64,000 bases of DNA from a virus, in IMG/VR virus record IMGVR_UViG_3300023215_000707, positions 1,150-65,149 of that record; one strand, 5' to 3'. The position numbers and the translations under genes were made by a program. The first letter of the stretch is position 1. Each line of letters begins with the position of its first letter. The notes beneath the pieces are model-generated. The model was not told the DNA's origin and did no database searches. It saw nothing but the letters and a program-made list of their open reading frames with translations. Of the stretch, positions 18,780-38,143 are shown one piece after another.

Positions 18780-20271
18780 CTTTCTCACCTACTAATACTT
18801 CGGAAGTCAATGCTAAACAAGTAACTGAAACGGCACTATTCAAAGAAGAAATAGTCACCTTCACAGGGTCAATAATTCCCTTTTTAACCAAATCACATTT
18901 TTTACCTGTTTTAGCATCTCTTTGAAGATATGGTATTGAAATATCCCATCCACCATTCATTAAAATTCTTTTGTAGGGTTCATCTAAACAAGAAGAAAAT
19001 GAGTTTTCACTATTTTGTCTTGCATTTAAAAGAGCATATCCACCACCACAAACAACCCCCAATTCCATTGCGGCTCTAGTAGCATTCAAAGCATCATCAA
19101 CCCTTTCTTTAGTATCTCTCATTTCTATTTCCGAACCTGCACCAATATTCAACACAGCAATACCACCGAGTAATTTAGCAATTCTTTTCTTCATATTATC
19201 TCTAACATAGTCATTAGAAGCATCTTCAAGGTGGCTTTCTATCATAGAGGCTCTTGTCTTGATAGCATCCGAATCGCCGTTACCATCTACAATTAAGGTT
19301 TTAGTTTCCCCAACAACCACCTTTACTGCTTGACCTAAATCTTCAAGTTCAGTTTCTTCAGGTTTAATTTCAGTTTGAACATCTAAAAATTTCCCATTTG
19401 TTAGTATTGCTATATCCTCTAATAAAGAGTCGGACACATAACCGTAGTCTGGAGATTCTATTGCACAACATTGCACTGTTCCATTCATAACATTTACAAT
19501 TAGATTACTAATAGCGTGTTGCTCAAGTGTGCGTGAAATAAGTAGTAGTGGTCGTTTTGTTTCAGCCACCTTTTCCAAGATTGGAATTAATTCTTGAAAC
19601 CTAAGAATATTAAAATTAGAAATAAGAATGTATGGATTCTCCATTTCAGTAATGTTCTTTTCTTTATCTAAGGCTAAATGATGGCTTCTATACCCTCTTT
19701 CAATTTCCATACCTTGAGCAATTTCAATATAGGTATTCATATCTTTAGATTCCGATACAGTAATAACTCCATTTTTACCTACCTTTTCCATTGCTTCTGC
19801 GATTAGTTCTCCGATATATTCATCATTATTTGCGGCTATTGTAGCCACGTTCTTAATTTGTGTAAAATTCTCTATTGGTTTAGCATTAAGCATCAAATTA
19901 CTAATAACTTCATCTCTTAAATTACTCAATTCATTAGAAACTTCAACAGGATTACGGCCACCATTAATTAATTCCATTCCACTTTCACAGAAACTTTGGG
20001 CTAATACACAAGCAGTTGTTGTTCCATCTCCCGCAGTGTTTTGGGCTTGAGTTGCTACTTCAATAAGAAGTTTAGCCCCCATATCAATAAATTCATCTTC
20101 ATGGAAAATTGATTTAGCAACAGTCACACCATCATTAACAATAATAGGTTTCCCTTTTTCTTTTAATATAACTGTTCTAGACATTGGGCCAAGGGTTGGT
20201 TTAACTGCATTTGCAACTAAATTAATTCCTTCTAGAATTTTTTCTCTCGCTTCATCACCTGTTACTATCAT
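18748..20271 (-). CDS. groEL: Group I chaperonin (GroEL-like)
   Basis: TLGP, VNDGVTVAK, GDGTTT, EQV-type apical domain, GIIDP; no GGM tail. Confidence 0.93.
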   Translation of the reverse strand: MIVTGDEAREKILEGINLVANAVKPTLGPMSRTVILKEKGKPIIVNDGVTVAKSIFHEDEFIDMGAKLLIEVATQAQNTAGDGTTTACVLAQSFCESGMELINGGRNPVEVSNELSNLRDEVISNLMLNAKPIENFTQIKNVATIAANNDEYIGELIAEAMEKVGKNGVITVSESKDMNTYIEIAQGMEIERGYRSHHLALDKEKNITEMENPYILISNFNILRFQELIPILEKVAETKRPLLLISRTLEQHAISNLIVNVMNGTVQCCAIESPDYGYVSDSLLEDIAILTNGKFLDVQTEIKPEETELEDLGQAVKVVVGETKTLIVDGNGDSDAIKTRASMIESHLEDASNDYVRDNMKKRIAKLLGGIAVLNIGAGSEIEMRDTKERVDDALNATRAAMELGVVCGGGYALLNARQNSENSFSSCLDEPYKRILMNGGWDISIPYLQRDAKTGKKCDLVKKGIIDPVKVTISSLNSAVSVTCLALTSEVLVGEKDEDLHSQRMF

Positions 20272-20579: not shown

Positions 20580-21140
20580 TTAATTAAGTAGATTCTGTAT
20601 ATCCTTAATACGTTGCTGTAATTTTTGGTTTTCTAATTCAAGTTGTTTAATGTAATCAAATATTGTAGATGCGTTTATTGTATGGCGGCTTATTCTACCA
20701 GAATATTTTATACTCTTTTTATATGATTTTAGACTTGCTTTAGGTTTAACAGATACAGGTCTAAGAATAGCCACAGGTTTATCAGCAGGTAACAATTCCC
20801 TACCAACTTTAACTTGCACTGCTTTTGTTGTCCTCTTTAATTGTTGTGCTATTTTATTTAAAGTAACACCTTTTTTAACCAAATCCATTAACAATTTTAT
20901 ATCGGTATCGGTCCATGATTTATTATTATTTTTTATAATAAACTGCATTTTAATTGCCTTCAATCTTTCTATTCTTGCTTCTTTGTTGTATTTAACACGG
21001 CAAGCCTGATATGTCCTATTTAATATCAAACCAATTTCATCCCAATCTTTGTTGTCTACATTTCTCATACTTGTCAAATTACTTATTTCTTCTTTATTCC
21101 ATCTCATTTTCTTCACCTTTTTTTCTTCTCTTTTCGTCAA
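20580..21140 (-). CDS. Tandem Myb/SANT-like HTH DNA-binding protein
   Basis: Two repeats W..EE/D...L...W/L..IA..L.RT..A. Confidence 0.7.
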   Translation of the reverse strand: MTKREEKKVKKMRWNKEEISNLTSMRNVDNKDWDEIGLILNRTYQACRVKYNKEARIERLKAIKMQFIIKNNNKSWTDTDIKLLMDLVKKGVTLNKIAQQLKRTTKAVQVKVGRELLPADKPVAILRPVSVKPKASLKSYKKSIKYSGRISRHTINASTIFDYIKQLELENQKLQQRIKDIQNLLN

Positions 21141-23623: not shown

Positions 23624-24254
23624 TTATATCTCTCCTAAATTCTTTTAATATAGTTTCACTAACCTTTAATTCACATAAAATCTTATAACGATGTTGGGGA
23701 GAAAACGTGTTTCCTTTTCCATCTCGGTCTTCTCTAAGAGAAATAACTCTATCATAGAGGATTCTACACCTCTCCTTACAAAACTTAGCATTTAATTGCC
23801 TTTCTGGTGTTATTCTTTCACCACAAGTTATACATTCATGGTGTTCTCTTAACATTTCTTTACACATAGGACTACAATATGGTTTATGAATTTCTGTATA
23901 TATAGAATTGGATTTATGACCCCAAAATTTCTCATCACAACTAGAGCATTTTATTATACTTTTTTTATTTTCTGGTCTTATTGCAACACAATCATCACAA
24001 GACACCTGATTAGTTCCTTTATGTGGTTTAAATTCATCACAAAAACCACAAATTCTTTCTGGAAAATTAGATTTTTCTTTTATTATTTGGCCTTTATGAT
24101 TTAGAAAAGTTATGGTTTCATATTTTCTTTTAGCCATAGTTCTTTTTAATGAATTTTGGCGAGTTTTATATCTACATTGAGAGCAAATATTTCTTGCGTG
24201 AAAAGTTCCACCCTGAAAAAAACGCTTCTCACAACGACTACAATCTCTCCACAT
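23595..24254 (-). CDS. Multi-zinc-finger (treble-clef/TRASH-like) protein
   Basis: Four CxxC...CxxC or CxxxC units, e.g. CSSC...YCSPMC and CITC...FCKERC. Confidence 0.65.
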   Translation of the reverse strand: MWRDCSRCEKRFFQGGTFHARNICSQCRYKTRQNSLKRTMAKRKYETITFLNHKGQIIKEKSNFPERICGFCDEFKPHKGTNQVSCDDCVAIRPENKKSIIKCSSCDEKFWGHKSNSIYTEIHKPYCSPMCKEMLREHHECITCGERITPERQLNAKFCKERCRILYDRVISLREDRDGKGNTFSPQHRYKILCELKVSETILKEFRRDINESKNNSSC

Positions 24255-25093
24255 TATCTAACCCCTGCAATAATATCACCGATAGTTAGACCATAGGTAT
24301 TTTTAATATTCAATAATTTTAATATGTTATTGTAATGCACCCTTATTGTAACCCCTGATACACTAAGAACTTCTGCAATCATTTTTTGAGTAATGTTCTT
24401 TTCTAATTGGGTTGTTTCTGTGAAATATATCAGGCCAGCCAAGTAAGGAGAAGTAGGGTGTTTAGATTCTAATGAATTAATATATTCATGAATATTAATA
24501 CATTCATTGATGAATTTTCTTGATTTTCCTAACCGCAAACAAAATTTCTCTAATAAAGAACCCACATTAACATTAGAAAATACATATGAAAGACCCAATT
24601 CTCTAGCAAATCCTCTAGAAAGTTTACTAATTTTCTTAGCCGGTAATTCTAACACTTTAGACATTTCTTGCAAGGTATAAGAATAATCATACTGCTTTAA
24701 AACAATATATCCTATTGCGGCGGCTCTAATTTCAAGAGGCATTTTAGTCGAGAAAATACCTTTCTTTATTAGAAGAACATAATATCTTTTCATTTCTTCA
24801 ATAGCAGGTGCGCTCATATTGAACTCACTGGCAACCATATTACAATATCTAAATCCTCTATTAATTGTCCGTTCATTAGAGGGAATGGAATGAATACGGG
24901 CAAGTCTTCTCAATTTATATGCCCCCTTTTCTTTAGAAACAAATCCGCCCAGTGTTTTATCATTATGTCTAACAAGTTCACCATCTTTAAAGGGGTTTTC
25001 TTCCATAATCAAACCATGAACTAAACCACAGTTAGGGCATTCTAGTGCTTCATTTTGTTTCACAATATCTATATTACATTCATCACATCTCAT
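24254..25093 (-). CDS. tfb: Transcription initiation factor IIB (TFB)
   Basis: N-terminal CDEC...CPNCG ribbon, two cyclin repeats, C-terminal ITQKMIAEVLSVSGVTIR HTH. Confidence 0.88.
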   Translation of the reverse strand: MRCDECNIDIVKQNEALECPNCGLVHGLIMEENPFKDGELVRHNDKTLGGFVSKEKGAYKLRRLARIHSIPSNERTINRGFRYCNMVASEFNMSAPAIEEMKRYYVLLIKKGIFSTKMPLEIRAAAIGYIVLKQYDYSYTLQEMSKVLELPAKKISKLSRGFARELGLSYVFSNVNVGSLLEKFCLRLGKSRKFINECINIHEYINSLESKHPTSPYLAGLIYFTETTQLEKNITQKMIAEVLSVSGVTIRVHYNNILKLLNIKNTYGLTIGDIIAGVR

Positions 25094-27730: not shown

Positions 27731-28993
27731 TCATTCTTCTTCACCACTTGGATTTTTTAATTCATCAATCATTTGACTTGCATCTCGCTTAGTAAGGTCT
27801 GTATTAGGTATTCCACCTAATTTACGAATATAAGATAATTGTTTTTCTGTAGCCTTATCATCTTCACCTTTAACAATCCTAATTGTCCTAAATAATTGCT
27901 TTTCCGACATGAAATTTCCACTGTGAATTTTACCAATCATATCTACTAAAAAGGAGATTTCCCAATCATTATTACCATGCGATTCAGCAGTAAATATTGG
28001 AATATTATGCTTCTCACAAAAATTAGGTATTCGCAATGCTATTTCTTTTTGCTCTTTTTCTATCCTCTTTTGTGTTTCTGCTCGTCGCTTTCGGTATAGT
28101 ATATTTTCCTCTTTTTCTCTAACTCTTCTTTGAGCCTCTTCTGCTTCTTTTCTTTGTTTAATTTCAGCGAGTCTTTCTTTACGTTCTGCTGTTGCAACAT
28201 TTATAGTTTCTTTATGTTTACCAATATTAAAGTAAAATATCAACAAATCATTCCAAAGTCTATTATTAGGATAACCTCTAATATTGGTTTGCGCTTTAGT
28301 ATTATCTGGATGATTCCATCGCCAAACAATTGATGCCATAAAATAATGAGGTGTTCCCATTTTACCTTCTGCTTTCTTACGAATTAATTTTGCATATTCA
28401 GTGCGAGCAGTTTCATAATCTTGATATGGTTTTCCCTGTCGAGTATTTATAAATAAATCTACTTCACGAACAACTTCAAACATTTTTTCAAATTCTTCCC
28501 CATTCTCTTTCCACCACCATTCGGATTTCATTGAATTTACAGCCTCTAGAACCCATTCTTTGACTCTTTCTTCGGTGACTTCATCTTCGGGCATTTCTAA
28601 ATTTTCTATTAAATGTCGAACAATCATCCAAAATCCAATATGTTCACTACCAACAATTTCAATCCTATTATTCTCAGTATTTTCAATTTCAAAATGCCAT
28701 GCGATAGAATGCCCACATATACAATAATGTGGATGAGATTGATTATGAGGCGATGGTAATACATCTTCTGCATCATCATTCATTGGCACATACCAAACAT
28801 TACCAGTTGCTCGCCATTCTTTTCTTGCTTCTTTCCAATTATCCGCTTCGGATAATGCTGTTAGATTATCTTTTAGGGCGATATTATATGCCCCTGTTGG
28901 GTCATCCAATCTCCCTGTAATTGCATCTAATAGAACATTACCTGTTGCTACAAATTCCGCTCCTTGTTCTCTAACTCTTCTTGCTATATTCAT
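27731..28993 (-). CDS. Large hypothetical protein with Zn-binding segment and C-terminal DUF3072-like motif
   Basis: CICGH..W...VGSEH; ATEKQL.YI..LG...LTK..AS..ID.LK. Confidence 0.6.
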   Translation of the reverse strand: MNIARRVREQGAEFVATGNVLLDAITGRLDDPTGAYNIALKDNLTALSEADNWKEARKEWRATGNVWYVPMNDDAEDVLPSPHNQSHPHYCICGHSIAWHFEIENTENNRIEIVGSEHIGFWMIVRHLIENLEMPEDEVTEERVKEWVLEAVNSMKSEWWWKENGEEFEKMFEVVREVDLFINTRQGKPYQDYETARTEYAKLIRKKAEGKMGTPHYFMASIVWRWNHPDNTKAQTNIRGYPNNRLWNDLLIFYFNIGKHKETINVATAERKERLAEIKQRKEAEEAQRRVREKEENILYRKRRAETQKRIEKEQKEIALRIPNFCEKHNIPIFTAESHGNNDWEISFLVDMIGKIHSGNFMSEKQLFRTIRIVKGEDDKATEKQLSYIRKLGGIPNTDLTKRDASQMIDELKNPSGEEE

Positions 28994-29366: not shown

Positions 29367-29592
29367 TATCTTTAATCTCCCATACTCTATTTCCTAATGA
29401 TTCTAATTCTTCTTGAGAAAAAGAGCCCCATTCATCATAATGACCTTGAACAAATCCAAAATGATAACCATTATCATTTAATTCTGTTGCGAACCAATAC
29501 CAACCACTGAAAGATTCCCAACCCTTCAATACTTTTTTCTTACCAATATACAGCCCATCTTCTCTTGTTTCTAATTTATTCATCTTATTCAC
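29335..29592 (-). CDS. DUF2958-like protein
   Basis: WYWFATE...FGFVQG...EWG.FS..EL. Confidence 0.65.
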   Translation of the reverse strand: MNKMNKLETREDGLYIGKKKVLKGWESFSGWYWFATELNDNGYHFGFVQGHYDEWGSFSQEELESLGNRVWEIKDIDLPHAGRRD

Positions 29593-29673
29593 TCTCTTTC
29601 CAATATTTGTGACTCATATCTTCTTTTCGTATTTGCATATCTATTATATTATATTCTTCTTCATTCATAGCAT

Positions 29674-29814
29674 TCATGCTCCATTGTAAAATAAAGTTCT
29701 ATAACAAGTTGCACATTCAACATGAATCCATGTATATTGGTCATTGTCGTCAGATAAAACACTTGCTTTAAGTTTCTTATGCCCCTTCGGGCATACTAAT
29801 TGTTTACTTCTCAT
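29674..29814 (-). CDS. Small Zn-ribbon protein
   Basis: MRSKQLVCPKGH...CATC; start re-called at 29814. Confidence 0.55.
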   Translation of the reverse strand: MRSKQLVCPKGHKKLKASVLSDDNDQYTWIHVECATCYRTLFYNGA

Positions 29815-29815
29815 A

Positions 29816-29980
29816 TTAATCTCTCCTACCGTATGTTCCATTATCCCTTGCTTCTTCAATGAATAACTCAGCCGCTTTAATAGCATTTATCATATTGTTA
29901 ATTGCGCTATATTCCATCAGCCATTTTGCTAACTCTAGTGCAGTATCTCCATTTCTCAATGCAATATCTATTTCACTCAT
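29816..29980 (-). CDS. Small helical protein (54 aa)
   Basis: Hand-translated MSEIDIALRNGDTALELAKWL... Confidence 0.55.
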   Translation of the reverse strand: MSEIDIALRNGDTALELAKWLMEYSAINNMINAIKAAELFIEEARDNGTYGRRD

Positions 29981-30230
29981 TATTCCCATCTTCATCTTCT
30001 TCCCATAAATCCATTTCTTGTAAGGTATGTTGGTCTGCTAAATAAGCATCTAATAACTCATCTATTTTCTCATAGATATTTTTAGAAATTCCCGCAATAA
30101 TGTTTCTTTTCCAGCCTAGCCAAATTTTGTAATAAGAATTGATTACGACCTTTGGTTCGTTATTATCATCAATTGTAATTACAATTGGCGGCATCTCTTT
30201 ATTATCTATTAATCTAAATTCTATTTCCAT
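29973..30230 (-). CDS. Hypothetical protein
   Basis: In-operon ORF. Confidence 0.55.
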   Translation of the reverse strand: MEIEFRLIDNKEMPPIVITIDDNNEPKVVINSYYKIWLGWKRNIIAGISKNIYEKIDELLDAYLADQHTLQEMDLWEEDEDGNNE

Positions 30231-30272
30231 ATTATCATCTCTTTAGTTGTATTCAGTATGTCGATATATAGA

Positions 30273-30509
30273 CTATCCGAATAGTTGTGACGTATCATTT
30301 TCATTATCTCCATTATATTTACCACTCATAATTCTATGGAGATTTCCAGCCGCAACAGGATATAGTGTTTTCACATTATCCATAATTGCACCACAGGTTA
30401 GCAATACTACTTCCCACTCTTTTTCTTTTACTGCTTGAACCAAATTATTTGATAGTGATTCAATCAGGCCATTAATTTCCTTTTCAATAGATTCAAAATA
30501 ATGCTTCAT
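30273..30509 (-). CDS. Hypothetical protein
   Basis: In-operon ORF. Confidence 0.5.
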   Translation of the reverse strand: MKHYFESIEKEINGLIESLSNNLVQAVKEKEWEVVLLTCGAIMDNVKTLYPVAAGNLHRIMSGKYNGDNENDTSQLFG

Positions 30510-30712
30510 AGAAATCCCTTCCCTTTATCTTCTCGATATTCTTGTATTAATTCTTGTTGCTCAATAGCACCACGGATAGCATCTTCTTCATTCTGTAATA
30601 CCAAATCGCCCAAATAAATTTCACCATCTATTTTAACAGATAGCCTAATCCAGTTCTCTTCTTTTTTAATTATGGTTGCCCATTGCACCTTTTCTTCTAC
30701 ATATTCATTCAT
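30506..30712 (-). CDS. Hypothetical protein
   Basis: First gene of the leftward block. Confidence 0.5.
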   Translation of the reverse strand: MNEYVEEKVQWATIIKKEENWIRLSVKIDGEIYLGDLVLQNEEDAIRGAIEQQELIQEYREDKGKGFL

Positions 30713-30822
30713 ATTATTTCCTCATTATTTTACATTCTTAATCTCTTAAGAACATTTCACTTATGAAACTTCTTTATTATTGGTTAAGTTTGATAACTTG
30801 TATGAAAACGAAGAGTAAACAT

Positions 30823-30970
30823 CTTTTCAATGTTTTCAATGTTTTAACCCCCCCTCTCAACTACTACTCTACTCTACTCTACTCTACTCTACTCTACTAT
30901 ATACTACTTAAATTACTTAAATAACTTAAATAATACTATATTATATTAGTTAGGGGGGATAACCCCCCCA
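30823..30970. repeat. Iteron-like repeat cluster, candidate replication origin
   Basis: (TTTTCAATG)2, C7, (ACTCT)6 at 30866-30895, (ACTTAAATW)3, G6-ATAA-C7 hairpin; in a 750-bp ORF-free polarity switch. Confidence 0.55.
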
Positions 30971-31465
30971 TTTTCTATTTAAGCCGACTTAAAATAACTG
31001 AAAAGATACGACCATATTATCAAATATAACATACACAATATCTAATACCTATATACATATAATATAATATATAGGCAATTGACCTTACCCAATAATACTA
31101 TCATGGATTCTAGGTGGTTAATAATAACCCCGAATGATGTTATGGATATGATTGTGTTTAGGTAATCTTTAGATAAATGGAGTCATTTTCCATGTGAGAA
31201 TAAATGTAGTTGAAGGGTATCACTTCAAGACACCATAGGGGGCTAGGATTCACTTATAAAGTGAGCCGGTAAGCAGGATGCACCCTTATTTATTCCTCTA
31301 ATTAAAATCCATCCTGTTTAACTGCGTAGCAACCATATGGTTTTAAACTGGGATTTAAACAATAACTTTATTCAAGAAATAGAACTGAAGGGAATGTAGA
31401 TATTTCAACCCATATGGAACTAACTTTGTCGAGTTCCTTGAAGAGATAAAAAGAGTTGTTAAGGC

Positions 31466-31669
31466 ATGGGATTATTCAGCAGAAATACCACCATAGAAAC
31501 AGAAATTAAAACGCAGGAGCAACGGTTCGTTATTGAGGTCGGACACAATCGTAACAGTGAATTGATTATCAAGAAGATAAGAGTCAGTGGCGATAATTTA
31601 GAAGAGTGCATCGCAGACCTTCAATTAGCGTTGCAGGATTTTAACATTCTAAGGGCAGGGAATGAATGA
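31466..31669 (+). CDS. Hypothetical protein
   Basis: Starts 22 nt after the CCTTGAAG box of dyad 31410. Confidence 0.6.
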   Translation: MGLFSRNTTIETEIKTQEQRFVIEVGHNRNSELIIKKIRVSGDNLEECIADLQLALQDFNILRAGNE

Positions 31670-31869
31670 TGGTGCATCATACTCATACTTTTACTGGTGC
31701 AGAATGGGCCGCAATTAAAGAAAGCCTTTCGCAAATACAGGGGTTCTTGCAGTTGTATGATGCCAACCCCGACATAAATCACATCAATGAGATTTGCACA
31801 AATGGAGAAATACTATATCGAATATGCCTTCAACCTTTAGGGAGATTTTTTGATAGGGTGGTTGAATAA
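31666..31869 (+). CDS. Hypothetical protein
   Basis: ATGA-coupled. Confidence 0.5.
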   Translation: MMVHHTHTFTGAEWAAIKESLSQIQGFLQLYDANPDINHINEICTNGEILYRICLQPLGRFFDRVVE

Positions 31870-32111
31870 TGTTGTGCCAATGGATGAGATTTCAATTAGA
31901 AGATGTTGCTAGGATGATTGGAGAGGTTGCGAGAGTTATGCACAATGGCGATATATTCAAGGATGATGAAGAACAGTATCTAATCGGTCAATGTATGGCT
32001 TGGGTTATTTTTGAAATGAGAACAAAATTACCAAATGAGGATTTTGATGAAGTGGCTTTTGAAGAAATGATAAACCATGCTTTTGATTCATTCAAGCCAA
32101 AGAAAATGTAG
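31869..32111 (+). CDS. Hypothetical protein
   Basis: Coupled ORF. Confidence 0.5.
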   Translation: MLCQWMRFQLEDVARMIGEVARVMHNGDIFKDDEEQYLIGQCMAWVIFEMRTKLPNEDFDEVAFEEMINHAFDSFKPKKM

Positions 32112-32174
32112 AAAATAAATTTCTATATGGTTATGGGCAAAGCCAAACCATATGGTATTAACTTTGAGTGCAAT

Positions 32175-32186
32175 ACCCCGAAGGGT
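32175..32186 (-). terminator. ACCC-TTCG-GGGT hairpin (related copies at 33211, 33988, 34988)
   Basis: Each lies 0-12 nt after a minus-strand stop and just before the next dyad. Confidence 0.6.
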
Positions 32187-32188
32187 TT

Positions 32189-32365
32189 CTATGATACTGT
32201 CTTGGTTTGCTTCAAATATTGAGATACTGCTTTAACGCCTATTTTTTCAATTGCACATTTTAGACATATTGCTGAACCATCGGAAATCCATATCATTGCG
32301 AATCCGCAACACATCATTTCAATTTGGCTTAAGTTATCTTTTATCTTTGTTCTAAAGTCGCTCAT
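32189..32365 (-). CDS. Small Cys-containing cassette protein (58 aa)
   Basis: Hand-translated MSDFRTKIKDNLSQIEMMCCGF...CLKC...; bounded by dyad 32417 and hairpin 32175. Confidence 0.6.
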   Translation of the reverse strand: MSDFRTKIKDNLSQIEMMCCGFAMIWISDGSAICLKCAIEKIGVKAVSQYLKQTKTVS

Positions 32366-32478
32366 GTCTTAATCAATTATTATTATTCATAAGGTGAACC
32401 AATCTCAAAGTTTGTTACCATATGGTCCGCTTTGCCAGCACCCCAACAAAGGCGGAGATACCCACCAATGTTGCCCAA

Positions 32479-33087
32479 TTACTCAGTCACCGCCGTTGGT
32501 GTTGGGGCGACCAGTGACGGCACACCTGCTTTGTTGAGGGTGCCATCCCACTGAATTGCAGTGGCATTATTGTCGGTGTAGGCTTTGTAGTAGCCGGTGA
32601 ATCGACTCCTGATATTCTTTGACTTTTGATTCCCGTAGGATTCGGCGTCATCGAATTGGGCGTAGTTGGCCTTACCTCGCATCCTCTCAGTTTCACCAAA
32701 GAGGGGGTGACTCGCATAAAGAGCAGTGAGTCCGGTTGCATAAACCGCACAAATCGAGGCTATCGAATCCTGAACTCCTTGGGGGAGTGAACTTTTCGGG
32801 CCAATTGTGATTGGTGAATTTTCCATAGTTGCGAACATATTAGTTATGTTCGCCCAAAATCTCTTTCTAAATTCAGGTTGTATATCGCCTTGCGTCAATT
32901 GATATTGAATTGGTGCGGCGGCATCGCCTAAATCATTTGTTTCCATATGATTAGTGACCAAAGCCTTGCGGCTAGTCCACTTATCGTCATCCATACTGTA
33001 ATCTGCTACCATATTTATCTCTCCGTTATTGGGTTGGGGGTATCTCCATCCAATGACGACAGATTCATTTATAACTGGTTCATACAA
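32479..33087 (-). CDS. Hypothetical protein, GC-rich gene (true start possibly MVADY)
   Basis: About 50% GC in sampled lines; GGAGA RBS before MVADY. Confidence 0.65.
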   Translation of the reverse strand: MYEPVINESVVIGWRYPQPNNGEINMVADYSMDDDKWTSRKALVTNHMETNDLGDAAAPIQYQLTQGDIQPEFRKRFWANITNMFATMENSPITIGPKSSLPQGVQDSIASICAVYATGLTALYASHPLFGETERMRGKANYAQFDDAESYGNQKSKNIRSRFTGYYKAYTDNNATAIQWDGTLNKAGVPSLVAPTPTAVTE

Positions 33088-33233
33088 AGCCGAACCATAT
33101 GGTTTTAGATTAAACTTTCAAGATGAATGAAAGACTTCATCCTTTTTAAAGGGTAATCGTGAAAACAGCAGACATATTTCACAGCATATGGTCTTAACTT
33201 TGAGATTAAGACCCCGCAGGGTGCTATTACCTT

Positions 33234-33425
33234 TCACGCACCGCCTTGCCATCGGCCATCTTCATCCAATAAGGATAAGTTTATGATTTTGGCTCTAAAT
33301 CGGGATTCATTGAAATTTGGATTATCAGATTTTAATACTATACAAAATGAATCAATTAATTCATGCTTCAATTCACCTTTTGCTAAAATTCGGGCAATTG
33401 CCTCATAGTGCCTACGTTGAAACAT
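33234..33425 (-). CDS. Hypothetical phage protein
   Basis: RRHYEAIA...NPNFNESRF motif; followed by hairpin 33211. Confidence 0.6.
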   Translation of the reverse strand: MFQRRHYEAIARILAKGELKHELIDSFCIVLKSDNPNFNESRFRAKIINLSLLDEDGRWQGGA

Positions 33426-33641
33426 TTAATCATCCCTTATCTGTGAAATTGTAGTCACGGCTCTTTCGCCGTCTATTATTTTTCTAATTGCTGAAATACT
33501 CATAACTAATGCAACGTATCTTTGACCGTCTGATGTAGTATAAATCTCACAGTCCTTGAAAGCATCTTGATTTATTGATATTTTGAGGGCGGCACCTACA
33601 TTTGACCTTCTCACATATCCAACTAATAGATTTTCACTCAT
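33426..33641 (-). CDS. Conserved-looking small beta-rich protein
   Basis: MSENLLVGYVRRS...LKISI...YVALV...IDGER. Confidence 0.6.
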   Translation of the reverse strand: MSENLLVGYVRRSNVGAALKISINQDAFKDCEIYTTSDGQRYVALVMSISAIRKIIDGERAVTTISQIRDD

Positions 33642-33915
33642 TTTCATCACCTTTGAAATTTGGAAGCCAATCTTCAGGGCAACCATCATTAAGAGCATCA
33701 GTAAGAGCCTTATTCCATGCTGTGTTGAAATTTTCTTCAATTGCTATTGCTAGATGACCCCAAGTAGTTCCCCACTGAATTTTGACGCACCATTCATCAA
33801 CTCTCGGTTGAACACCAATAATACACTTACCAATCCAACTTTCATCGGGCATACCGTTACGGCTTATCCCCTGTCCTGCTATCCAATCTGTTCCATGCTT
33901 AGTTACCATACCCAT
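33634..33915 (-). CDS. Hypothetical cassette protein
   Basis: Downstream of dyad 33959. Confidence 0.55.
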   Translation of the reverse strand: MGMVTKHGTDWIAGQGISRNGMPDESWIGKCIIGVQPRVDEWCVKIQWGTTWGHLAIAIEENFNTAWNKALTDALNDGCPEDWLPNFKGDENE

Positions 33916-33998
33916 TGAGGATTAAATCACTCTTAAGGTGCGTTACTCAAAGTTTCTTACCATATGGTATTAACTTTGGGGAATAATACCCCGAAGGG

Positions 33999-34328
33999 TT
34001 AATTTGCTACATAATGATATGTCGCAGGGTTCACCTTAATGCGTGAACCATCCCATGCTTCACCATTTAGATACCATACCCAATTTTTCTGCACGATATG
34101 AACATTAGGTAAACCGTTGAGTCGTTCCTTTGTTGTTACTGATTGCCAGCCACCATCACAAATATACAAATCTCCGAAAATATCGAAACGGGCTATACAG
34201 TTACCATGTAAATACAACCCTCGTTCAATGTTACCTATTCCGAGTATAACTTGAGTATTGCCTCTCTTGAATTTATACCTATTTCTAAAAGCCCTTACTG
34301 CATCAATTGTTATTTGTCTTCGTGCCAT
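33999..34328 (-). CDS. Hypothetical phage protein
   Basis: LYLHGNCIA...SVTTKERLNGL motif; bounded by dyad 34379 and hairpin 33988. Confidence 0.65.
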   Translation of the reverse strand: MARRQITIDAVRAFRNRYKFKRGNTQVILGIGNIERGLYLHGNCIARFDIFGDLYICDGGWQSVTTKERLNGLPNVHIVQKNWVWYLNGEAWDGSRIKVNPATYHYVAN

Positions 34329-34405
34329 ATCCTAAGCCTCTATTATTATTCTTAAGGTTCTATTACTCAAAGTTTAGAACCATATGGTTATGCTTTGCTA
34401 AATAA

Positions 34406-34597
34406 CCTTGAAGAAAATTAAACAGGTGGGGGGGAACGCTGATGTGAGCGATAGAAAACAAGCCTGACTGACCAAACTGTTCATTGAAACGCTCCCCCCC
34501 CTTGAATGTCTAATTAATGGGAGAGATTAAGGACAAAAGTAGTTGTGGCCGACACACTACTACTGGATGCCCTTGAATCTCTCCTTGAATGTTTAAT
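34406..34597 (-). ncRNA. Candidate two-hairpin ncRNA punctuated by TTCAAGG repeats
   Basis: GGAGAGATT/AATCTCTCC with inner AGTAG/CTACT and TGTG/CACA; G7AGCG/CGTTC7; repeat at 34406, 34500, 34583. Confidence 0.55.
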
Positions 34598-34847
34598 TGA
34601 TTCTCCTTTCTTTAATAGTCCATGGTGGGTTTACTACCTCGTCTATCATTTCGGCAAATCGTCGTTTGTTGCGACCGTAAATTGCACCAGTCATTCTGTT
34701 CGCATCTAGCATAATTCGGGTGATGGCTGTCTTATTCATTCGGTCGATGTAGTTCTGCGCTTTGGGTTTGTAGCGGTATAGTGGTTGGTAAGAGGGTTTC
34801 CCATCTTGTAGTATTTCATATACTGAATCACTCATGCCCATAGTCAT
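34593..34847 (-). CDS. Hypothetical cassette protein
   Basis: Downstream of dyad 34885. Confidence 0.55.
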   Translation of the reverse strand: MTMGMSDSVYEILQDGKPSYQPLYRYKPKAQNYIDRMNKTAITRIMLDANRMTGAIYGRNKRRFAEMIDEVVNPPWTIKERRIN

Positions 34848-35000
34848 TTAATTAACTTATTAAGGTAGACCACTCAAAGTTACTACCATATGGATTGAAA
34901 TATCTATCGTATAGGAAGTGTTGGGAAGATATATAACATAATGTTGAAAGTTTAATCTAAAACCATATGGTCCGCTTTGCAATTTTGACCCCGAAGGGCG

Positions 35001-35231
35001 TTAATTTCCATATTTCTTCATTGTTGCATCAATTATGCGCTGGATTCGACTATTATCAAACTGCCCTAGTGAATATATCTTGAAATCCTCAAATTTTCCC
35101 GAAATGTAGTCTATCCTATGTTTGGGTTCATCATATATATTTTCAATATCCCATATATCCCTAGCAAACTCAAATAGATTAGTATTCCGAGTATAATAGA
35201 ATAGGTCTATTGCTCCTTGTAATGAAATCAT
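35001..35231 (-). CDS. Hypothetical cassette protein
   Basis: Followed by hairpin 34988. Confidence 0.55.
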   Translation of the reverse strand: MISLQGAIDLFYYTRNTNLFEFARDIWDIENIYDEPKHRIDYISGKFEDFKIYSLGQFDNSRIQRIIDATMKKYGN

Positions 35232-35456
35232 TTACTTCAACACCCCATTAGTCCATGTTCCCCATGATTTACCCATAGGATTGCCAAAAGACATTTTACT
35301 ATAAATGGCTATGATAGTTCCGTTCTCTAGGTTATCATCAAGGCAATAACTACCACCACCACCAAACATTGAGTAGTTATATCCATATATTTCTTCTCCA
35401 GCCTCAAGCCTACGCTTTAGGGCGGCTTTGCTCTTTGCTTCTACATACACCTTCAT
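35232..35456 (-). CDS. Hypothetical cassette protein
   Basis: Downstream of dyad 35495-35529. Confidence 0.6.
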   Translation of the reverse strand: MKVYVEAKSKAALKRRLEAGEEIYGYNYSMFGGGGSYCLDDNLENGTIIAIYSKMSFGNPMGKSWGTWTNGVLK

Positions 35457-35833
35457 GTCCTAATCATTTTATTAGACTTATAAGGAACTTATTGCTCAAA
35501 GTTTAGTTCCATATGGTATTAACTTTGAGATAAATACCCCCATCACTCTTCCTCATCATAATCTCCATCTTCACAGTTACAATATCCTGTAATTATTGAA
35601 CTTTTACATCGTGGGCATATCATTCTTCTTCACCTTCTGCTTCTTCTTGAATTTTTCTTAAATATCTTTTTATCCCTATCCAAAATGGGTGATTCATTCT
35701 ACTTCACCTTTATTTTTGGTAAATCTTGTTAGTAATACTATATGTTCAATGAGACATTTTCCACTACTGCATATGTTAGATACATCGGGGTCTATTACTG
35801 TATCACAATGTAAGCATAATGGGGTAAAATCAC

Positions 35834-36034
35834 TCATTCTTCCTCACCACCAGTTATCATCTTAATATTTATTACATTAGTGCTATTCAAGAGTATTTGT
35901 TCTTCTTTCATTTCTTTTCTATACGTTACTATTACTCTTGCTTGTTGCCATACCAAATATAATTCATGTTCATATGTTCTCAATTCTTCTATACTAATTT
36001 CGTGCATTTCTTCTGTTGTTTTTAATTGACTCAT
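35834..36034 (-). CDS. Hypothetical protein
   Basis: Coupled ORF. Confidence 0.5.
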   Translation of the reverse strand: MSQLKTTEEMHEISIEELRTYEHELYLVWQQARVIVTYRKEMKEEQILLNSTNVINIKMITGGEEE

Positions 36035-36306
36035 TGTTTCACCTTCGTAAATTTACCTTGTTTGTCTCTTACATTGTGATTACAATGTGAGATTGCACCT
36101 TCTACATCCCTCAATAAAACCATAATTGAGGTCCAATACTTCTTTCGCATATCTGCATTTGTATTACCCATTATGATATTCAATGCTACAACAGGGGCAT
36201 AATCATCATCTAGTATATCCGTATTAACACAATCAATTTTTTGAGTCCATTTTTCGTCACTCATCCAATATGGGGGGCATTTATCCCACTGTATGTTTTC
36301 TACCAT
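36031..36306 (-). CDS. Hypothetical cassette protein
   Basis: Downstream of dyad 36354. Confidence 0.55.
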   Translation of the reverse strand: MVENIQWDKCPPYWMSDEKWTQKIDCVNTDILDDDYAPVVALNIIMGNTNADMRKKYWTSIMVLLRDVEGAISHCNHNVRDKQGKFTKVKQ

Positions 36307-36487
36307 ACCTTAATGATTCTTTATTGTTTATCAAGGTTGATGCAAAGCCTACAACCATATGGCTTTGTAGAAAAAAACTAATATTAACCGTCAATAGCAC
36401 TTTAAACAGCATTACGACCAAACAATTGATACCAGCCACCATATCTATTACCCCCCTTGTTATGGGATATGTTGAAGTGACTTTTTC

Positions 36488-36718
36488 ATGGCCGAAGAAG
36501 ATGCAATTTTTACAATCATTAGTAAGATTAATTCCGCCATTGTAAAAGCCCAACGTGATGTTAATTCTGCTAATAAAACCCTGCTAGAGACTAAAGAACT
36601 ACTGCTAGAGGTGTTAGAGTTGTCTAGATTAGATACATCTCAAAGTAGTTTGCAGGATTTCGATAAGAGTGTATTGAGTTTGAAAGTTATAAAGGCAATG
36701 TTAAATGATGTGAGTTGA
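36488..36718 (+). CDS. Helical hypothetical protein, first gene of the rightward block
   Basis: Heptad-like ORF. Confidence 0.55.
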   Translation: MAEEDAIFTIISKINSAIVKAQRDVNSANKTLLETKELLLEVLELSRLDTSQSSLQDFDKSVLSLKVIKAMLNDVS

Positions 36719-36818
36719 AGTTGTATTGGCTGGAAATAGATGAAAAAATAAAAAAACAACAGCAAAGAAAAAATTTGCTGAGACACTATCATAAGCGTTA
36801 TTATTGGAGAGTGTGATA

Positions 36819-36854
36819 ATGTGGAAAGGGATATTGAAAAATGGAGAGAGATAG
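36819..36854 (+). CDS. 11-aa tag-only mini-ORF MWKGILKNGER
   Basis: GTGTGA RBS; contains the GGAGAG RBS of the next gene. Confidence 0.45.
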   Translation: MWKGILKNGER

Positions 36855-36855
36855 A

Positions 36856-37221
36856 ATGGGTTGGCAAGCCATATTAAAGAAAGAACTTGTTTCTTATGTA
36901 GTTAAAGAGTCTATTTGGAAAGAAGCCTATGGATTATTAGGTGCAAATGATAGAAGAGTTTCAACTGGTTATTTTGAGGCATCCTTTGATGAAATAGAAA
37001 AAGTATTAAATAGAAAACTTACTCCACATGATTTTGCTTTCTTTAGTGCAAACTTTGAAGGAGATGTAGAAAGACATTTAGGACTTGCTAATTATAAACT
37101 TATGCTACAATTATTTACTGATGAAGATTATCAAATAGAATCTTTAGAGGGTGAAGAAGATGATAATATTTTAAGACTTTCCCGTAAAGAATTACAAAAA
37201 GAATTGGAGAGGTTAGAATGA
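36856..37221 (+). CDS. W-x-x-I-L-K-tagged hypothetical protein
   Basis: Starts MGWQAILKK. Confidence 0.65.
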   Translation: MGWQAILKKELVSYVVKESIWKEAYGLLGANDRRVSTGYFEASFDEIEKVLNRKLTPHDFAFFSANFEGDVERHLGLANYKLMLQLFTDEDYQIESLEGEEDDNILRLSRKELQKELERLE

Positions 37222-37489
37222 GTTGGTTTGAAATTCTTAAATTTTATATATTTTATCATTCTACTACTGAAGAAGGATTAAATGCGTTTAACAATGGAGA
37301 ACCTATTAAAGAAGGAACATTCATGTCTAAAATTAAAGAGGGTGCAAGGTTTAGGAGAAGTATTGGGATTGGATTGATTCTGTTAATAGAAGTAAAAAAT
37401 GGCCCGGGAAATATTGGGATGAATGGATAGTAACTACTAAGCCTATTATTGATTATAAAATATTAGAAGTAGAAGATGGGTGGGAATAA
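37218..37489 (+). pseudogene. Tagged ART-fold-like protein interrupted by a -1 frame change
   Basis: MSWFEILK...FYHSTT...FMS; -1 frame gives KKWPGKYWDEWIVTTKPIIDYKILEV...* ending 2 nt before the next ATG. Confidence 0.45.
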
Positions 37490-37491
37490 TT

Positions 37492-37809
37492 ATGTCTTGG
37501 AAAAATATACTAAAAATAGGTAGTTGTTATGAAACTGCCTATTCTTATATTCTGGATAAAGCCACGGCAGGTAATGAAGATTTAATTCTTGTTCATGCAG
37601 ATGTTATTGGAACAGGTGGTAAAGTAATGGGTATGTGTTATGGTCACGCATTTGTTTTAGATGGTGATAATGTTATAGATACAGAAACAAATATAACTAT
37701 ACCTTATGAAGAATATAAACAGTTAGGGAAAATAACAAATGAAAAGAGATATACCTTTATGGAAATGTTACAAGCGGCAGTGAAATCTGGTCATTATGGT
37801 CCGTGGTGA
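37492..37809 (+). CDS. Tagged papain/transglutaminase-like Cys-His-Asp enzyme
   Basis: MSWKNILK; GSCY, GHAFV, VID triad pattern. Confidence 0.6.
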   Translation: MSWKNILKIGSCYETAYSYILDKATAGNEDLILVHADVIGTGGKVMGMCYGHAFVLDGDNVIDTETNITIPYEEYKQLGKITNEKRYTFMEMLQAAVKSGHYGPW

Positions 37810-37815
37810 ATAATT

Positions 37816-37851
37816 ATGTGGAAAAGGATATTGAAAAAAGGAGAAATTTAA
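37816..37851 (+). CDS. 11-aa tag-only mini-ORF MWKRILKKGEI
   Basis: GGTGA RBS; contains the GGAGA RBS of the next gene. Confidence 0.45.
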   Translation: MWKRILKKGEI

Positions 37852-37852
37852 A

Positions 37853-38143
37853 ATGGGTTGGTTTGATGCAACGCAAGAATGGGTAGATAATATTAATTAT
37901 TCACATTATAAAAAGGGTATAGTAGAGATTGTTGATAAAGTTCGCAAATTATTACTTGAGGCTGAAGAATCACCCCATCTTAAAGAAGAGATAAAAAAAG
38001 AAATACTTGAAATAGCATCTAAAAGAGAATTTAAACCATTAACGGAAGAATTGCCACCATTAGAAGAAGGTAGATTAATAGATACATATGCCCTAATACC
38101 AACTAAACATAATAAAGATTGGCGAAAGCAATTACGAAGGTAA
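37853..38143 (+). CDS. Hypothetical protein (partial tag MGWFD)
   Basis: In-operon ORF. Confidence 0.55.
   Translation: MGWFDATQEWVDNINYSHYKKGIVEIVDKVRKLLLEAEESPHLKEEIKKEILEIASKREFKPLTEELPPLEEGRLIDTYALIPTKHNKDWRKQLRR

Follow-up and report, generated by a model that had tools for sequence, protein, structure and literature searches.

A palindromic core marks the junctions of a conserved array of small-gene cassettes in a magrovirus genome

The stretch of DNA analysed here (the window, 64,000 nucleotides (nt), positions 1150-65149 of the 72.8-kb IMG/VR virus record IMGVR_UViG_3300023215_000707) is part of a magrovirus genome, and we show here that it carries an array of small genes whose junctions are marked by a short palindrome. 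The invariant part of the repeated element is the 10-bp palindrome ACCATATGGT, in the following termed the core. Its central 8-mer CCATATGG occurs in 11 exact copies in the window, all of them within 31333-36362, compared with a mean of 1.11 and a maximum of 4 in shuffled sequences. Two further copies, CTATATGG at 32123 and GCATATGG at 33184, differ by one mismatch, share the flanks and bring the array to 13 elements. The feature is genuine, departs strongly from chance and is conserved throughout the virus family. We regard it as probable that it represents a single hyperplastic block of accessory genes, composed of cassettes with the palindromic core at their junctions and a promoter and a hairpin as flanks.

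The array is not a peculiarity of one genome. A scan of IMG/VR with a pattern of core plus arm found 32 stretches, about 20 of which carry 6-16 cores within a few kb. Loci of relatives were collected via a flanking 420-amino-acid (aa) protein (27731-28993), yielding 80 loci with 34-60% identity. An array of 4-22 cores lies at the same syntenic place in 53 of the 54 loci that have at least 7.5 kb upstream, and the sequence downstream of the flanking gene holds 2 cores in 825 kb. In a non-redundant set of 53 arrays, 214 kb hold 415 cores, versus a single one in 755 kb of flank, an approximately thousand-fold enrichment. Whole records were compared for five relatives, of which four are complete, and the cores of each are gathered in a single cluster, with no more than one stray copy elsewhere. 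In the median array, 7 cores follow each other at intervals of about 500 bp; family-wide the positions adjoining the 8-mer are A and T in 91% of the copies. In the magrovirus literature searched we found no mention of promoters or repeated palindromes, and a literature search with CCATATGG returned mostly cloning primers. Some distant relatives (L081:243-6378, L077:871-5878) carry 16-22 cores, often 100-150 nt apart, with no open reading frame (ORF) of at least 40 aa in between and with other recurring short motifs in place of the CTTTG arms; these dense arrays may consist of small-RNA or micro-ORF cassettes.

Within the window the elements have a fixed order (Table 1). Read in gene direction, a complete junction such as 33907-33999 begins with the upstream stop codon, followed by a 4-bp stem with a UUCG loop, 6-8 nt, CAAAG(YY), 3-5 nt, CCATATGG, 3-6 nt, (RR)CTTTG(AG), 3-10 nt, a box of the form ACCTT(A/G)NNN, 21-22 nt and ATG. 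A preliminary description of this DNA had counted 12 dyads, with arms of the AACTTTG type in the consensus. The array stands, with 13 as its number once the two one-mismatch copies are included, but both arms are of the AACTTTG type only at cores 33960 and 35509; elsewhere the distal arm varies and is GGCTTTG, TGAAATAT or of the longer TTTTAGATTAAACTTTCAA type. The remaining geometry holds: perfect 9-bp arms at 35495-35529, a CCTT(A/G)NNN box followed after 21-22 nt by ATG at seven cores, use of both strands (plus at 31410; minus at 32418, 33960, 34380, 34886, 35509 and 36355) and four ACCC-NNNN-GGGT hairpins just past minus-strand stop codons.

On the gene-start side the element has the properties of a promoter. 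In archaeal promoters, the centre of an A/T-rich TATA element lies about 24-27 nt ahead of the transcription start, and the start site is an initiator with a pyrimidine at -1 and a purine at +1. The seven promoter-bearing cores of the window are each followed by a CTTTG arm, an ACCTTAWRW box, 21-22 nt and ATG, and throughout the family the ATGs that open ORFs of at least 40 aa peak 47-54 nt past the core. Across lineages the distance from box to ATG stays at 21-23 nt, while that from core to box ranges from 16 to 25 nt; hence, the box and not the core sets the start. In 151 family promoters, the A of the ATG is preceded by C (57%) or T (28%; 85% together). When aligned on the ATG, the promoters are A/T-rich at -27 to -23 and have CC at -31 to -29; TTAWRW begins 27 nt ahead of the A, and CCTT is preceded by A in 94% of the boxes. 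Shine-Dalgarno-like motifs precede 11% of the core-promoted genes versus 48% of the other genes in the same loci (p = 7e-14); GGTGA or GGAGG stands before the ATG in genes outside the array and in internal genes of array operons, not in the first genes after a core. Thus, TATA-element spacing (24-27 nt), a pyrimidine at -1 with a purine at +1 and scarce Shine-Dalgarno motifs are all found together. The pattern is also specific: in the 72.8-kb genome, the combination of a box, a gap of 21-23 nt, an ATG and an ORF of 40 aa or longer occurs 10 times; the dyad promoters account for seven of these, and ATGs within large genes for the other three. Array families F10, F12, F14, F24, F29, F32, F1 and F16 mostly have the core at promoter distance, flanking families never. 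The F0 family is an exception, with the core about 88 nt upstream and a leader that has a Shine-Dalgarno motif. Judged from these sequence features, the box on the core side can with good confidence be predicted to be an archaeal TATA promoter that initiates on the ATG and gives leaderless mRNAs, as the preliminary description had proposed from the geometry. Two genes of the window probably start later than the longest open frame implies (33909 and 34835), because an earlier ATG of the same frame precedes the one at the canonical distance. The composite promoter pattern in the arm and box variant of this lineage had no match in archaeal genomes in a collection of 185,579 species; the nine single matches there were all in unrelated bacteria, which has little bearing on the bare core in hosts.

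The cassettes have been rearranged between relatives, and the core is where this happened in many cases. Over the 54 arrays, gene families F0, F1, F5, F10, F12, F14, F15, F24, F7 and others occur in varying order and in both orientations relative to the conserved flanking genes, and gene content differs widely from one relative to the next. Of the ends of blocks with at least 92% identity, 39% fall no more than 20 nt from a core, versus 8% for random positions, and with a null restricted to intergenic positions, 42% versus 11% lie within 10 nt. Both ends are at cores in five of nine clean indels. A 370-bp cassette of locus L103 is absent from L107, and the one junction left in L107 agrees with the left element until the core is reached and with the right element from there on. 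In three further comparisons the parent switches inside TACCATATGGT while the other flanks are 24-41% identical, which is chance level, and the crossovers map to an interval of about 12-14 nt containing the core. An F0 cassette is inverted in L042 relative to L043, and the inverted block ends at two cores. The earlier suggestion that gene-content breakpoints should coincide with the dyads is therefore borne out by block ends, indels, chimeric junctions and an inversion, and from these alignments the core very likely serves as the exchange point of the cassettes. Contigs from four DNA sequencing runs, compared with 29500-38000, break inside the array; a few loose contig ends lie 17-30 nt from cores (36376, 31356, 31389, 34860), many others do not. 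A search for sequencing runs containing the array, or a 1.7-kb part of it, listed no RNA run.

Crossovers this narrowly placed could also be the work of a dedicated recombinase or nuclease-ligase pair, viral or host, that uses the core as its crossover site in an integron- or shufflon-like, orientation-free manner, with the promoters hitchhiking. The short crossover interval between parental flanks of chance-level identity and the inversion bounded by two cores are both in line with such an enzyme, as are the cores at promoterless junctions (32148), the empty core-to-core doublets and the two ATP-dependent ligases encoded by the virus. The 10-mer is far more strictly conserved than arms or box, and a dedicated enzyme would explain an exact 10-bp palindrome despite a flanking protein of about 35% identity and drifting arms and boxes. 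However, neither a tyrosine (Phage_integrase, PF00589) nor a serine (Resolvase, PF00239) recombinase domain is present in this genome, which extends the earlier observation that the window lacks an integrase, and Phage_integrase is equally absent from the four complete relatives. The arms are unlike the R''/R' sites of attC, every cassette has its own promoter and stands in either orientation, and recombination alone does not require the fixed distance between element and gene start. Moreover, short repeats and phage-type recombination give the same pattern, as has been proposed for the promoter-early stem-loop (PeSL) elements of T4-type phages. We consider a dedicated enzyme unlikely. If one of viral origin or from the Marine Group II (MG-II) host did act at ACCATATGGT, magroviruses would run an integron-like, orientation-free cassette exchange that lacks a known integrase and has a leaderless promoter for each cassette.

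The arms flanking the core do not behave as one unit. In 87 two-armed cores, neither the dinucleotide ahead of CTTTG nor the spacing on one side depends on that of the other side (sequence, 20 matching pairs versus 15.3 expected; spacing, 28 versus 29.2), most cores have one arm or none, and arms are present on the promoter side in 66% versus 38% on the other side. Because the arms do not co-vary, the apparent dyad is more plausibly a pair of independent half-sites, one for each of the neighbouring cassettes. Cores also occur at the convergent junction 32148 and bound units that are free of ORFs, and the core is thus a junction marker with each flank part of its own cassette. The missing co-variation in sequence and spacing also speaks against an action of the dyad as RNA, that is, as a terminator or processing hairpin at the 3' end of the upstream cassette. 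Full dyads do form a long imperfect hairpin, with a moderate advantage over shuffled sequence (z-scores of -1.9 to -2.5), and lie just downstream of a sense UUCG hairpin, but these z-scores are weak, the half-dyad folds no better than its shuffles (z = 0.2), and the palindromic core forms only 2-4 pairs. We therefore rejected this reading as very unlikely.

The UUCG hairpin itself is a separate matter. No more than 45 nt from a core, 38 perfect GC-rich tetraloop hairpins have a UUCG loop; hairpins are found almost only on the non-promoter side. In 25 of the 38 the hairpin is sense to a gene that ends within 40 nt upstream, and one is in the opposite sense. This bias after stop codons indicates that the hairpin is a feature of the RNA, at the 3' end of the transcript that lies upstream. 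Family-wide, the hairpin accompanies only about 10% of the cores.

A third possibility, that the cores are iterons or origin-recognition sites of a replication origin at the divergence of the gene blocks, is very unlikely as well: the array does lie at the cumulative GC skew minimum and the strand switch, and repeated dyads are typical of origins, but the cores are spread over 3-6 kb between genes at about 500-bp spacing, keep a fixed distance to start codons and travel with individual cassettes, unlike clustered origin recognition box (ORB) elements around an unwinding region.

We return to the accessory block built of cassettes and propose how it may work. Junctions carry ACCATATGGT flanked by loosely spaced CTTTG half-sites. 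On the gene-start side, the core is followed after 16-25 nt by an ACC-TTAWRW box, which fits a TATA element with a short 5' edge resembling a TFB-recognition element (BRE), and 21-23 nt past the box an ATG with a preceding pyrimidine would be the point where transcription starts, on the start codon itself. On the gene-end side, a c(UUCG)g tetraloop hairpin, sense to the upstream mRNA, often precedes the core. The box may be read by host TBP, TFB and RNA polymerase, or by the viral TFB homologue described below. A dimeric sequence-specific protein may bind the core plus arms and co-regulate all cassettes; binding of some protein to the core seems somewhat more plausible than its absence. For a protein bound at such a distance from the TATA box, activation or insulation would be more likely than classical repression. 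Related viruses have gained, lost, moved and inverted cassettes by crossover inside the core. Since the core equals its own reverse complement, any pair of copies can recombine so that the intervening DNA is deleted, duplicated or inverted, which would give an orientation-free modular shuffling of the kind proposed for PeSL elements. By analogy to the small early genes of other archaeal viruses, the cassette genes would probably be early host-takeover or anti-defence genes, and we give their early expression an even chance.

Several observations weigh against this proposal. Roughly half of all block ends lie inside genes. The clearest crossovers come from three closely related genomes and, with so few lineages, perhaps reflect only 2-3 independent events. 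A relative of about 93% identity from one seawater run lacks the 67-aa ORF 31666-31869 exactly at overlapping stop and start codons, so that gene loss inside an operon also occurs without a core. On the promoter side, the exact CCTT form of the box is found in only about one third of the family promoters, and about 60% of the family cores have no ATG-ORF at promoter distance, which means that the core is not simply part of a promoter. Core and box are separated by distances that differ by about 9 nt, almost a full helical turn, and the arm-to-box distance ranges from 3 to 10 nt; this is awkward for a factor that touches TBP or TFB from one face of the helix. Finally, no T-run was found after the hairpins, unlike in known archaeal terminators, and the hairpin can hence not be called a terminator.

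Which proteins might read the element? TFB recognizes the BRE adjoining the TATA box. The window encodes a TFB homologue outside the array whose two cyclin folds match the Pyrococcus TFB core (1d3u_B, E = 3.6e-10) and which is also recognized by the NCBIfam TFIIB model (1.6e-15); it is present in all five relatives searched over the whole record, and the magrovirus literature searched contained no mention of a viral TFB homologue. The preliminary description had listed TFB among the candidate readers of the dyad. The homologue is genuine and conserved, but TFB reads the BRE, here perhaps the conserved ACC, rather than a core 16-25 nt further upstream. Two other candidates from that description did not hold. 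The Myb-like protein (20580-21140) is a poor candidate, because none of 39 array-bearing relatives has a match in the stretch downstream of the flanking gene, and the supposed LAGLIDADG-like ORF (13629-14480) matches P-loop ATPase and clamp-loader families instead. A core-binding role was also considered for F0 (about 155-210 aa), the only family present in every one of the 54 arrays (1-4 copies, usually as single-gene cassette between two cores), and was dropped because the protein is acidic (median isoelectric point 5.0). Its structure model is confident, with a pLDDT (predicted local distance difference test) of 91.6, and gave no informative match in the PDB (Foldseek, VIA-align) or among AlphaFold clusters.

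Table 1. Elements of the cassette array and the TFB homologue in the window.
Feature	Position	Strand	Details
TFB homologue	24254..25093	-	outside array; candidate reader of ACC-TATA box
Whole cassette array	31332..36363	.	13 cores, ~9 transcription units, ~16 small ORFs
Core 1 (ACCATATGGT)	31333..31340	.	promoterless; left end of 77-nt core-to-core spacer unit
Promoter module P1	31410..31468	+	core 31410-31417, arm AACTTTG 31422-31428, box CCTTGAAG 31436-31443, 22 nt, ATG 31466
Degenerate core CTATATGG 32123 and core 32148	32123..32155	.	convergent junction, gene 3' ends on both sides, promoterless
c(UUCG)g hairpin	32175..32186	-	directly past stop of 58-aa gene (32189-32365)
Promoter module P2	32363..32425	-	core 32418-32425, arm 32404-32412, box CCTTATGA 32394-32387, 21 nt, ATG 32365
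F0-family cassette	32479..33102	-	core 33095 ~83 nt upstream; TTATAAAT box and GGAGAG Shine-Dalgarno motif between
Degenerate core GCATATGG 33184-33191	33184..33222	-	arm AACTTTGAG, hairpin 33211-33222, past stop of 63-aa gene
Complete junction element	33907..33999	-	hairpin 33988-33999, full dyad around core 33960-33967, box CCTTAAGA 33938-33931, 21 nt, ATG 33909
Core 34380-34387 with leftward promoter P4	34326..34413	.	box 34357-34350, ATG 34328, 109-aa Kyano_Gp96-family gene
Rightward promoter-like module at core 34380	to 34413	+	CTTTGC, box CCTTGAAG 34406-34413, into ORF-free stretch
Promoter module P5	34833..34893	-	core 34886-34893, arm AACTTTGAG, box CCTTAATA 34865-34858, 22 nt, ATG 34835
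Core 34963-34970	34963..34999	-	arm GCAAAG, hairpin 34988-34999, past stop of 76-aa gene (35001-35231)
Promoter module P6	35454..35529	-	perfect 9-bp-arm dyad 35495-35529 around core 35509-35516, box CCTTATAA 35485-35478, 21 nt, ATG 35456
Promoter module P7	36304..36367	-	core 36355-36362, arm GGCTTTGCA, box CCTTGATA 36336-36329, 22 nt, ATG 36306

The transcription units behind these elements differ in length. P1 heads a three-gene unit (31466-32111) and P7 an operon of at least three ORFs, the first being a truncated F0 paralogue (36031-36306, minus strand) and the internal genes having GGTGA Shine-Dalgarno motifs. The full F0 copy of the window (32479-33012, minus strand) probably starts at ATG 33012, giving 177 aa; it has a leader, since the TTATAAAT box and the GGAGAG motif lie between core 33095 and the ATG. 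ATG 33909 is the second of its frame (product 91 aa) and ATG 34835 the third (80 aa). The roughly 16 small ORFs are nearly all ORFans. Only the gene at 33999-34328 (minus strand) belongs to a known family, Kyano_Gp96 (Pfam, E = 4.8e-17; phrog_554), which is otherwise known from T4-like cyanophages, a hint that genes may have passed between marine viruses of bacteria and of archaea. Three homologous core-to-core units of 77-89 nt (31333-31417, 33095-33191 and 34886-34970) contain no ORF; they share both end sequences, and one is inverted with respect to the other two. A pair of 34-nt inverted repeats with 94% complementarity brackets 33091-34974. The slot 34388-34597 to the right of core 34380 is ORF-free and rich in GC hairpins, with four CCTTGAA boxes within 184 nt, and may encode a dyad-promoted non-coding RNA.

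The virus record has an estimated completeness of 78%, and the window encodes the large terminase, a portal and a prohead protease, a family-B DNA polymerase (PolB) split over two ORFs, a clamp loader and the two ligases mentioned above. The chaperonin (18748-20271, minus strand) is of the Cpn60 family and GroEL-type, with 43% identity to bacterial GroEL, and is not a thermosome. A split PolB together with a GroEL-type chaperonin marks group B magroviruses, which are viruses of Marine Group II archaea (PMC5434244), and due to these two features the virus probably belongs to group B. The chaperonin was also used as a lead towards an MG-II contig and reached a bacterium instead. Genes point leftward to the left of about 36.4 kb and rightward to its right, and the array lies just left of this divergence point. 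Between the replication block and the array, about 570 nt (30763-31330) have no convincing ORF and contain a tandem CTACT run (30862-30900), a G6/C7 palindrome (~30953-30971) and a very AT-rich stretch; this region is a possible origin or block terminator. In the surface ocean, magroviruses rank among the most abundant viruses of archaea, and to our knowledge neither they nor their MG-II hosts are in culture.

The element provides a concrete cis-regulatory code for these viruses, consisting of a box, a fixed spacing and a predicted start on the ATG, and it probably corrects the start codons of two window genes (33909, 34835). The exact 10-mer is a ready bait for its reader protein. It also marks the accessory genes as one putatively co-regulated class, and an approach of this kind has found anti-defence genes in other archaeal viruses (PMC11065993). 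In SIRV2, SMV2 and fuselloviruses, early anti-defence genes are small single-gene units sharing a near-identical regulatory sequence with BRE and TATA, some of which carry inverted repeats thought to bind a virus-encoded repressor (PMC11065993). Here too, many unrelated small genes share one regulatory sequence that includes the core promoter. In contrast, the repeats there overlap the BRE, while 16-25 nt separate the palindrome described here from the box that follows it. In the Sulfolobales hosts, experiments demonstrated early timing as well as the functions of some genes, magroviruses not being included (PMC11065993), whereas our data are from sequence.

A comparison with integrons is suggested by an array of small cassettes, each bounded by an imperfect palindromic exchange site. 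However, no integrase was found (PF00589 in none of five genomes, this one and the four complete relatives), the arms are CAAAGYY...RRCTTTG and not RYYYAAC...GTTRRRY, and the cassettes have their own promoters and both orientations, while attC cassettes are promoterless and in one orientation. Thus, the array fails the defining features of integrons. A resemblance to the haloviruses HF1 and HF2 had been pointed out in the preliminary description, and in the parts of the HF2 account available to us the intergenic repeats are indeed shown to carry promoters, their position being conserved within the genus (PMC8707807). In that respect both are repeated promoter-bearing intergenic elements of a tailed archaeal virus. 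The HF2 elements, likened here by description, are 58-bp and 29-bp direct repeats with AT-rich motifs, and those parts of the account mention no palindromic core (PMC8707807).

The closest parallel drawn earlier, to PeSL elements, is apt. PeSL cassettes of T4-type phages are terminator-hairpin and promoter elements between small ORFan genes (PMC2839356, PMC4122927). In both systems a composite of hairpin and promoter is repeated between the small genes of a hyperplastic region (here 4 hairpins, 7 promoters and about 16 ORFs), and the breakpoints of indels and replacements between relatives fall in the elements. The differences are equally clear. The promoter described here is of archaeal type, TATA-like and predicted to start on the ATG, while PeSL has a sigma-70-type promoter. 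Upstream of the promoter there is a 10-bp palindromic core as a separate part, which occurs without promoter as well and is itself the crossover point. Excised mini-circles, formed when elements recombine with each other, are a further trait of PeSL cassettes. Cassettes are also inverted besides being inserted or deleted, the homology at crossovers is only about 12-30 bp, and the hairpin is a 4-bp c(UUCG)g stem-loop without a U-run. By analogy, the array would function like PeSL, but it is not a member by sequence or machinery, because its promoter is archaeal and a separate palindromic core serves as exchange point. Archaeal viruses, like T4-type phages, are thus shaped by the shuffling of modules at repeated promoter-terminator elements, and here the palindromic core additionally permits the flipping of cassettes.

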